From the sequence record PP079212.1: 39,299 bases of DNA, one strand, 5' to 3'. Positions 22,013 through 22,102 of this stretch are shown here, piece by piece. The stretch comes from Escherichia phage phiHAO2-2. The notes below the pieces were generated by a model. That model did no database searches. It saw only the letters and a list, made by a program, of their open reading frames with translations, and was not told the DNA's origin. A program made the translations under genes and the position numbers. The stretch's first letter is position 1; every line of letters begins with the position of its first letter.

Positions 22013-22102
22013 ATGTTCCTTATTTACACAGGGTTAGCACTATTCGTCTTATTCTGGGCGTACCTGCTGCCCAGCTCACCGTCTAGCCCCTATGACCATT
22101 AA
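22013..22102 (+). CDS. Small hydrophobic peptide (29 aa) between terminator and tail genes, hypothetical
   Basis: Strong SD TAAGGAGGG 5 nt before ATG 22013. Translation MFLIYTGLALFVLFWAYLLPSSPSSPYDH. Confidence 0.3.
   Translation: MFLIYTGLALFVLFWAYLLPSSPSSPYDH

Follow-up and report, generated by a model that had tools for sequence, protein, structure and literature searches.

Escherichia phage phiHAO2-2 (sequence record PP079212.1) carries, between the terminator that follows its capsid gene and its gene 11, an open reading frame (ORF) of 29 codons that, judged by comparison with related sequences, is very probably a real protein-coding gene. The explanation that we favor overall, by a modest degree, is that this ORF is a genuine accessory micro-gene that has been exchanged horizontally and encodes a peptide predicted to be a membrane protein. 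The window, which is the whole stretch of 39,299 nucleotides (nt) of this phage that was analyzed, represents a Kayfunavirus (K1F-like, T7 group); its segment from 21700 to 22400 shares 99.9% identity with Escherichia phage phiHAO1-1, and parts of this segment are matched in 303 phage records. A first-pass annotation of the window had placed the ORF straight after the terminator, in a spacer that is non-coding in T7. Both statements hold: the frame at 22013–22102 has an ATG start, a TAA stop, and a length of 29 amino acids (aa) with the terminator hairpin directly upstream, and in the T7 record nothing is annotated between the terminator (24210) and the start of gene 11 (24228). An ORF of 29 codons is, however, not improbable by itself, the chance of one from any ATG being ~0.25, or (61/64)^29, and the case for a gene must therefore rest on comparison with relatives.

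Homologous ORFs of 29–37 codons are present at the same site, between the capsid terminator and the gene for tail tubular protein A, in four phage groups, so that conservation in relatives, which the first-pass annotation had named as a check, speaks for the ORF. The form found in the window, which we refer to as allele A, is present in 48 Kayfunavirus records at an identity of at least 92.8%, and a second form, allele B (MFYLLTALGLFVSFWAIILLTGPCSPYDR), is present in 15 Kayfunavirus records including vB_EcoP_F, phiYIO1-1, and KM02, with 29 codons and the same start and stop positions. Using allele B as a query in tblastn searches, we identified the other two groups, namely a subclade of Przondovirus consisting of Klebsiella phages (peptide MFIVLSAVSLAVATMLYVVVTGPCSPYDK, six records) and a subclade of Molineuxvirinae consisting of Klebsiella and Proteus phages of 44–46 kb (peptide MYYLLCVTLLLFASFWCYVLATGPVSVAERRDNANSK, which begins MYYLLCVTLLLFASFWCYVLATGP, 17 records). 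The position after the capsid terminator and before, or overlapping, the tail tubular protein A gene was likewise found in loci L002, L006–L008, L012–L015, and L026. Peptide similarity scores are significant in all six lineage pairs (z = 5.1–10.3, with at most 2 of 5,000 shuffles reaching the observed score) even though the shuffles keep the helix-plus-tail architecture described below. Five of the allele-B loci (L006–L008, L016, and L018) have a tandem in-frame start, ATG-ATT-ATG (MIMFYLL...), making both a 31-aa and a 29-aa form possible, and L026 has the downstream ATG only.

The distribution of the ORF is patchy in each of these clades. Among the 112 Kayfunavirus records that cover at least 80% of a 701-nt query, 63 are filled (48 with allele A and 15 with allele B); six filled Przondovirus genomes compare with four empty close relatives (6/10), and 17 filled Molineuxvirinae genomes with four empty ones (17/21). 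K1F is without the segment, and its gene 11 lies directly after the terminator. Because the gene is absent from many relatives including K1F, it is an accessory gene and not part of the core. A hidden Markov model (HMM) of the family matched translated ORFs at 4 of 80 gene-11 loci from diverse Studiervirinae, all four from Kayfunavirus, and no unrelated hydrophobic micro-ORF was found at the site in the remaining loci of that set. DNA-pattern scans of IMG/VR returned Kayfunavirus contigs only, and those of JGI metagenomes returned two more allele-B contigs and five chance matches. Alignment of the window with allele-B carriers revealed flanks that are 92–96% identical around an ORF that is 59% identical, which argues that the allele is uncoupled from its flanks. 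In addition, the window (allele A), two allele-B loci (L016 and L018), and an empty-site locus (L020) share a gp11 that is 100% identical at the amino-acid level.

The comparison of alleles A and B has the signature of a coding sequence (CDS). The proportion of synonymous sites that differ (pS) is 0.90, that is, saturated, and the proportion of non-synonymous sites that differ (pN) is 0.35; the first, second, and third codon positions have 18, 17, and 9 identities of 28, respectively. The ratio of non-synonymous to synonymous substitution rates (dN/dS) is 0.26 within allele B, 0.33 within Przondovirus, and 0.15 within Molineuxvirinae. Across eleven allele-A sequences, there are nine synonymous and ten non-synonymous variant states at ~21 and ~63 sites, which corresponds to a per-site ratio of ~0.37. 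Moreover, the Pro-Tyr-Asp codons near the end of the ORF have only synonymous differences between lineages, and start, frame, and length are maintained across all four of them. The ORF is thus taken to be a protein-coding gene because frame, start, and length are kept, because pN is far below pS, and because the similarity of the peptides exceeds that of shuffled sequences. The same data bear on the possibility that neutral inserted DNA happens to contain this reading frame, i.e., that the ORF is an insertion scar without a functional product. This possibility draws on the length of the ORF, which chance could readily produce, on the location at an insertion hot spot where other genomes have an HNH endonuclease gene or different ORFs, and on one record with a frameshifted 3' end; however, a scar would not be expected to keep frame, start, and length in four lineages at a DNA identity of only ~59%, with pN far below pS and a peptide similarity of z = 5–10 relative to shuffles, and allele B does not conserve the alternative frame that the record of phage Pipis annotates. 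We therefore consider a chance origin extremely improbable.

Alignments of filled and empty junctions revealed that the ORF is part of a cassette, 99 bp in the window, that inserts exactly at the translation start of gene 11. In the window, direct repeats of TTAAGGAG lie at 22000–22007 and 22099–22106, 99 bp apart (table 1). Empty-site relatives read TTTTTTTGCTTAAGGAGGGCCTATGGCTCAA, in which the ATG is the gene 11 start, and empty-site Kayfunaviruses have either TTTTTTTGCTTAAGGAGGGCCT or, in the K1F type, TTTTTTGCTTAAAGTGAGAGGAGACTT in front of ATG-GCT-CAA, the ATG being the start of gene 11 in both. The same two leader sequences stand in front of the small ORF in the window (allele A) and in L026 (allele B), from which it follows that the ribosome-binding site (RBS) and ATG of the ORF are the former RBS and ATG of gene 11. 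At its other end, the ORF has its stop codon inside the new gene 11 RBS, which reads TAAGGAG in allele A, TAGGAGGGAG in allele B, and TAAGGAGG in Przondovirus; in the window, the stop lies 11 nt ahead of the gene 11 ATG. The Molineuxvirinae ORF continues through the RBS and start codon of gene 11. The flanking repeat is AGGAGGCTTTATGTT in Przondovirus and AGGAG in Molineuxvirinae, where comparison of a filled with an empty genome gives an indel of exactly 97 bp. With one RBS borrowed and a replacement supplied, gene 11 would stay translationally linked and the operon is unbroken. The cassette captures the Shine-Dalgarno sequence and ATG of gene 11 and hands gene 11 a new Shine-Dalgarno sequence in return, and the short Shine-Dalgarno repeats at both ends allow precise loss or exchange by recombination. 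This mode of insertion is unusually compact and tidy.

A cassette of this construction could also be explained if only the translation of the ORF mattered, either as a leader that keeps ribosomes flowing from the former gene 11 RBS to the new one or as a spacer from the terminator hairpin, with a peptide that has no function. In line with such a role, every Studiervirinae allele has its stop within the gene 11 RBS, the Molineuxvirinae ORF overlaps the gene 11 start, and the ORF uses the former gene 11 RBS. However, cassette-free relatives start gene 11 just 14–30 nt past the T run of the terminator, so a leader is not needed, and coupling would conserve neither amino acids at saturated synonymous sites nor a helix and a P-Y-D-[R/K/H] end in four lineages, which makes a functionless leader or spacer a doubtful proposition.

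Accessory genes inserted between genes that are adjacent in relatives are reportedly what the moron concept of Hendrix and Juhala describes. The cassette resembles a moron in that it separates genes that are direct neighbors in T7, K1F, and many relatives, is present in some genomes and absent from others within each clade, and has alleles that are exchanged independently of the flanks. It differs in that it has neither a promoter nor a terminator of its own, the only terminator being the upstream Tphi, which is also present in empty-site phages; in that it takes the RBS of its neighbor and supplies a replacement; and in its size of 97–99 bp, far below that of a typical moron. Its G+C content is 0.478 in allele A, which is at the 35th percentile of 90-nt windows and compares with 0.497 for the whole window, and 0.389 in allele B, where a bias toward codons for hydrophobic residues could explain the lower value.

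The expression signals of the ORF follow from this anatomy. The first-pass annotation had assigned the ORF a strong RBS, which agrees with the finding that an identical RBS and ATG drive the essential gene 11 in cassette-free relatives, but the spacing of 5 nt given there needs correction, as TAAGGAGGG (22001–22009) ends 3 nt before the ATG. A TAA at 22001–22003 is in frame with this ATG and makes a longer N-terminal form impossible. To locate promoters, we scanned the window for the phage consensus TAAACTATCACTATAGGA and found 11 matches with three or fewer mismatches (0.03 expected by chance), at positions 1822, 5355, 7051, 8031, 10331, 16832, 19653, 20657, 25064, 32341, and 38598; the copy at 10331 diverges most, having three mismatches. 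None lies between the gene 10 promoter at 20657 and the gene 13 promoter at 25064, and a promoter scan of the region before the ORF gave no sigma-70-like site. Transcription of the ORF and of genes 11 and 12 would therefore depend entirely on read-through of the terminator, which from the promoter map is the sole route and bears out the earlier suggestion of expression by read-through. Read-through of the terminator is the established transcription route of T7 genes 11 and 12. Phage RNA polymerase would thus transcribe the ORF late, from the equivalents of phi9 and phi10 and only on those transcripts that pass the Tphi-like terminator, and the peptide would be made together with gp11 and gp12 at a level far below that of the capsid protein. 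The sequence of this terminator is unchanged across the aligned Kayfunavirus relatives, and a short 10B-like region separates it from gene 10A.

The predicted peptides share one architecture. Each begins with Met followed by an uncharged helix of ~19 residues and a [TS]-[GS]-P-x-S motif, and ends in [DE]-[RKH], the total being 29 codons (37 in Molineuxvirinae). Residues 1 to ~19/20 are hydrophobic in every lineage and the helix has no D, E, K, R, N, Q, or H. The Hessa free-energy (dG) sum is -2.1 kcal/mol for the window peptide and -1.4 to -2.8 kcal/mol across all lineages, and the Kyte-Doolittle mean over 19 residues is 2.15 for the window peptide and 2.15–2.5 across lineages. AlphaFold2, run with the family alignment, models a helix over residues 1–18 with a predicted local distance difference test (pLDDT) score of ~90 and a tail with a score of ~62. 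After the helix there is a Pro or Gly-Pro and then a tail of 9–10 residues (17 in Molineuxvirinae) with an acid-base pair, the end of which, P-x-S-P-Y-D-[R/K/H], is conserved at the amino-acid level. These values predict a membrane helix, in agreement with the description of the ORF as a small membrane peptide in the first-pass annotation, and the peptide is predicted, with fair confidence, to insert in the host inner membrane. In the model that we propose, residues 1–19 would form one uncharged helix in the inner membrane, which a helix-breaking Pro or Gly-Pro would separate from a 10-residue tail. A lipoprotein or another protein with a signal peptide, such as an o-spanin, was also considered and rejected. 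No K or R precedes the helix, and a lipobox of the form [LVI][ASTVI][GAS]C is absent; alleles with a Cys read T-G-P-C, which puts Pro at -1, and the window allele is without Cys. Lacking a positive n-region and a lipobox, the peptide is neither a signal peptide nor a lipoprotein.

What a membrane peptide of this kind might do can be approached by comparison with known systems. Small single-pass regulators of the inner membrane of enterobacteria include AcrZ, MgrB, MgtS, PmrR, and KdpF. The ORF peptide falls in the same size class and likewise consists of one hydrophobic helix and a few polar terminal residues, but it has no sequence relationship to these proteins and is phage-encoded. By analogy with them, our best guess, which is tentative, is that the peptide binds a membrane partner and has a host-dependent role: it would bind, as a small partner and by helix packing, to a larger protein of the inner membrane, acting via its helix and conserved tail, and its benefit would depend on the host, for example, against a membrane-based defense or exclusion system or in the timing of lysis. 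A host-dependent binder fits both the presence/absence polymorphism and the existence of two old alleles on near-identical backgrounds. A further elaboration is that the micro-gene spreads across T7-like subfamilies by recombination at Shine-Dalgarno sequences, and that the late peptide neutralizes a membrane-based host system triggered by late phage proteins, such as an abortive-infection effector of the PifA/F-exclusion type or a different membrane effector, making it a determinant of host range whose diverged alleles are kept by an arms race; this would be a speculative scenario to which we give little weight. The peptide does not belong with the superinfection-exclusion membrane proteins of the T4 Imm/Sp type by homology or timing, as there is no PHROG match and the ORF lies in a late, class III-like unit and not in an early one, though it may still have an analogous function.

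Alternatively, the peptide could act on membrane integrity, either as a depolarizing peptide similar to type I toxins or as a holin accessory or antiholin; made late, it would set the time of lysis by lowering the proton-motive force or by interacting with the T7-family holin gp17.5. Type I toxin membrane peptides include TisB, Ibs, ShoB, and Hok/Ldr. With its very hydrophobic single helix and 29 aa, the ORF peptide is in the size class of TisB, Ibs, and ShoB, and by this likeness it could be toxic when over-expressed, a property for which the first-pass annotation had listed a test. Expression of the ORF would be late and on the mRNA that also carries the tail genes, the tandem start ATG-ATT-ATG of allele B has a layout known from dual-start holins, and a patchy distribution suits a tuning function. 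However, the peptide has no match to a holin, antiholin, or toxin family in Pfam, PHROGs, or NCBIfam, its helix has neither a polar nor a charged residue and hence no such face, and it is expressed in an operon from a strong RBS, which sets it apart from type I toxins; consensus scans of 21500–22700, which cannot exclude an antisense RNA, found no promoter- or terminator-like site on the minus strand, and there was no Rfam family. The T7-family class II holin gp17.5 (PF10746) is also a small, late, phage-encoded membrane protein, but the ORF peptide does not match that family, is half the size, and, its tail bearing one acidic and one basic or His residue, is without the highly charged C-terminal domain typical of holins. 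The window, moreover, has a full lysis set of its own (table 1), in which an embedded ORF with a lipobox-like LTISGC motif, identified by eye only, reads as the o-spanin, and these lysis genes (35.7–36.7 kb) are 13.6 kb away from the ORF. With these lysis genes in place, the ORF is not the holin of the phage, and the conservation of the tail motif suggests that the peptide has a specific partner. An action on membrane integrity consequently appears unlikely, and the peptide itself is probably not a pore former.

A further alternative is a role of the peptide as a minor component of the virion or of the ejection apparatus, in which it would aid assembly or the passage of internal core proteins across the inner membrane. 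The position of the ORF between capsid and tail genes and its co-expression with gp11 and gp12 would suit such a component; nevertheless, the closest relatives form virions without the peptide on identical gp11 backgrounds, there is no link to known T7 virion proteins, and no proteomic report was found in the literature. A virion component is thus very improbable.

Database searches placed the peptide in no described family. There was no meaningful match in Pfam, PHROGs, or NCBIfam, and the only match in Rfam was sub-threshold, to NsiR1, and fell on the terminator hairpin. A phmmer search with the 30-residue translation from the window against 1.84 billion cluster representatives returned one cluster. 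This search and a profile search of 5.8 billion proteins, for which the family profile was headed by a 46-aa annotation from KPN7, together returned five phage clusters only, all labeled "hypothetical" or "uncharacterized" and containing only family members. The window's exact peptide sequence is absent from the protein collection, but QZI84345.1, QZI78483.1, XUU32585.1, XCO38099.1, WQZ00629.1, UVD41744.1, and UFK26379.1, all "hypothetical protein", belong to the same family and lie at the same site. No match was found in 5,426 complete Escherichia coli genomes (blastn) or in a plasmid collection (tblastn), and nothing on this gene was found in the literature on Kayfunavirus, small membrane proteins of T7-like phages, or phage micro-proteins. 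On sequence grounds, the peptides constitute a new family of predicted small, phage-encoded membrane accessory proteins.

Several observations count against the interpretation of the ORF as an accessory gene for a membrane peptide. The gene is absent in T7, K1F, and most Studiervirinae sampled, from which it follows that it is dispensable. The cross-subfamily tblastn matches are weak alone (E = 1–8), though exactly at the syntenic site, and homology to the Molineuxvirinae form rests on synteny and the shuffle test. The sequences are short, so that dN/dS is based on few sites, and several pairwise ratios within allele A are near or above 1. In phage vB_EcoP-22664UKE3-2 (MZ234011, locus L049), the ORF at 151–246 has a 1-nt deletion that changes ...SPYDR to ...SPMTAKE, rewriting the last three residues and extending the peptide to 31 aa; this variant tail is either a tolerated variant or a sequencing error. 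A predicted 7-bp hairpin at 22005–22021, in which the Shine-Dalgarno sequence (GAGGGAC) pairs with codons 1–3 (GUUCCUU), could limit initiation at the ORF. The distribution of charges leaves the topology of the peptide undecided, and a face of small residues for packing on the helix is not significant, as 4,655 of 20,000 shuffles reach the observed value. Finally, we infer the translation of the ORF, and both membrane insertion and topology are predictions.

Table 1. Positions in the window of the micro-gene, its cassette, and the genes and signals relevant to it
Feature	Position	Strand	Remarks
Phage RNA polymerase promoter, scaffold gene (phi9 equivalent)	19653..19670	+	exact consensus TAAACTATCACTATAGGA
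Phage promoter, gene 10 (phi10 equivalent), last before ORF	20657..20674	+	1 mismatch to consensus
Gene 10A, major capsid protein	20780..21823	+	347-aa ORF; so annotated in relatives
Tphi-like intrinsic terminator	21957..21997	+	17-bp hairpin, UUCG loop (21957-21994), T7 run (21991-21997); terminator scan, RNA fold
99-bp cassette, present/absent among relatives	22000..22098	+	boundaries ambiguous within 8-bp repeat TTAAGGAG
Shine-Dalgarno AAGGAGG of ORF	22002..22008	+	is the gene 11 RBS in cassette-free relatives
29-codon ORF	22013..22102	+	ATG start, TAA stop, 29 aa MFLIYTGLALFVLFWAYLLPSSPSSPYDH
Predicted transmembrane helix part of ORF	22016-22069	+	codons 2-19
Pro/Ser-rich tail part of ORF, ending Asp-His	22070-22099	+	codons 20-29
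Second TTAAGGAG copy, replacement gene 11 RBS	22099..22106	+	ORF TAA stop (22100-22102) inside
Gene 11, tail tubular protein A (tail adaptor)	22114..22680	+	188-aa ORF; so annotated in relatives
Gene 12, tail tubular protein B, last gene of read-through unit	22680..25037	+	785-aa ORF; so annotated in K1F, Pipis
T7-family holin gp17.5	35736-35930		Pfam PF10746, E 2e-22
i-spanin ORF	36292-36741		identified by eye only

Few viruses are annotated as well as T7-like phages, which find wide use in therapy and engineering, and the gene described here is nonetheless missed or mis-annotated in most records: the closest relatives leave it out, one record gives the wrong frame, and others absorb it into an extended gene 11. 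The first-pass annotation had called the ORF unannotated, which is correct for the closest records, phiHAO1-1 and Zappy, and incorrect for 15 of the 48 records with the window allele, which have a "hypothetical protein" at the site. In every record that we opened, the annotated CDS is the same ORF, except in Pipis (PV714130, L001), where a 34-aa ORF with a TTG start is annotated at 584–688 in another frame that runs through the terminator hairpin and the ATG ORF is omitted. In ZG49, the CDS of tail tubular protein A covers the small ORF, and in SHAK7854 and SHAK9454 a feature named "similar to tail protein" does likewise. The annotations in Pipis, ZG49, and the SHAK phages look like mis-annotations.

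The locus illustrates how a gene of 29 codons can harmlessly take up a position ahead of an essential gene, by borrowing its RBS and bringing a replacement. It also provides a natural experiment, with filled, empty, and allele-swapped genomes on near-identical backgrounds in three clades, and such natural genomes make the function of a phage membrane micro-protein directly testable. If the peptide does affect lysis timing, exclusion, or resistance to host defense, this would matter for the choice and engineering of therapeutic phages that target K1 strains or Klebsiella.

Other insertions are found at or near the same site. In the Kayfunavirus contig IMGVR_UViG_3300045988_000061 (L022/L058), the cassette is replaced by a gene for a 74-aa HNH protein of the Endonuclease VII type (PF02945, E 2.6e-19), located 227 to 2 nt upstream of gene 11, which is probably a homing endonuclease. 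Penshu1 (MK903281, L005) has a different, Cys-rich ORF of 40 aa at the site (609–731) with a sub-threshold match to a His-Me finger endonuclease (E 0.03), and this ORF may be an endonuclease remnant. Together, the HNH gene and the Penshu1 ORF mark the site between terminator and gene 11 as an insertion hot spot. In five Kayfunavirus contigs from IMG/VR (L039, L061, L063, L070, and L075), the place of the window's short 10B-like region is taken by an ORF of 83–87 aa (MTVASAPVVQTVSG...SFKLQVTN) that follows the capsid gene, precedes the terminator, and lies ~320 to 58 nt upstream of gene 11; it has no Pfam match and might be a capsid decoration protein or an extension of the 10B type. The records PV615262 (Acinetobacter phage vB_Aba_01KA), MT350292 (Enterococcus phage EFA-1), and PP889465 (Klebsiella phage phi1_146013) are ~96% identical to E. 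coli Kayfunaviruses in this region, and the host names of these records look doubtful, most of all that of the Gram-positive Enterococcus.

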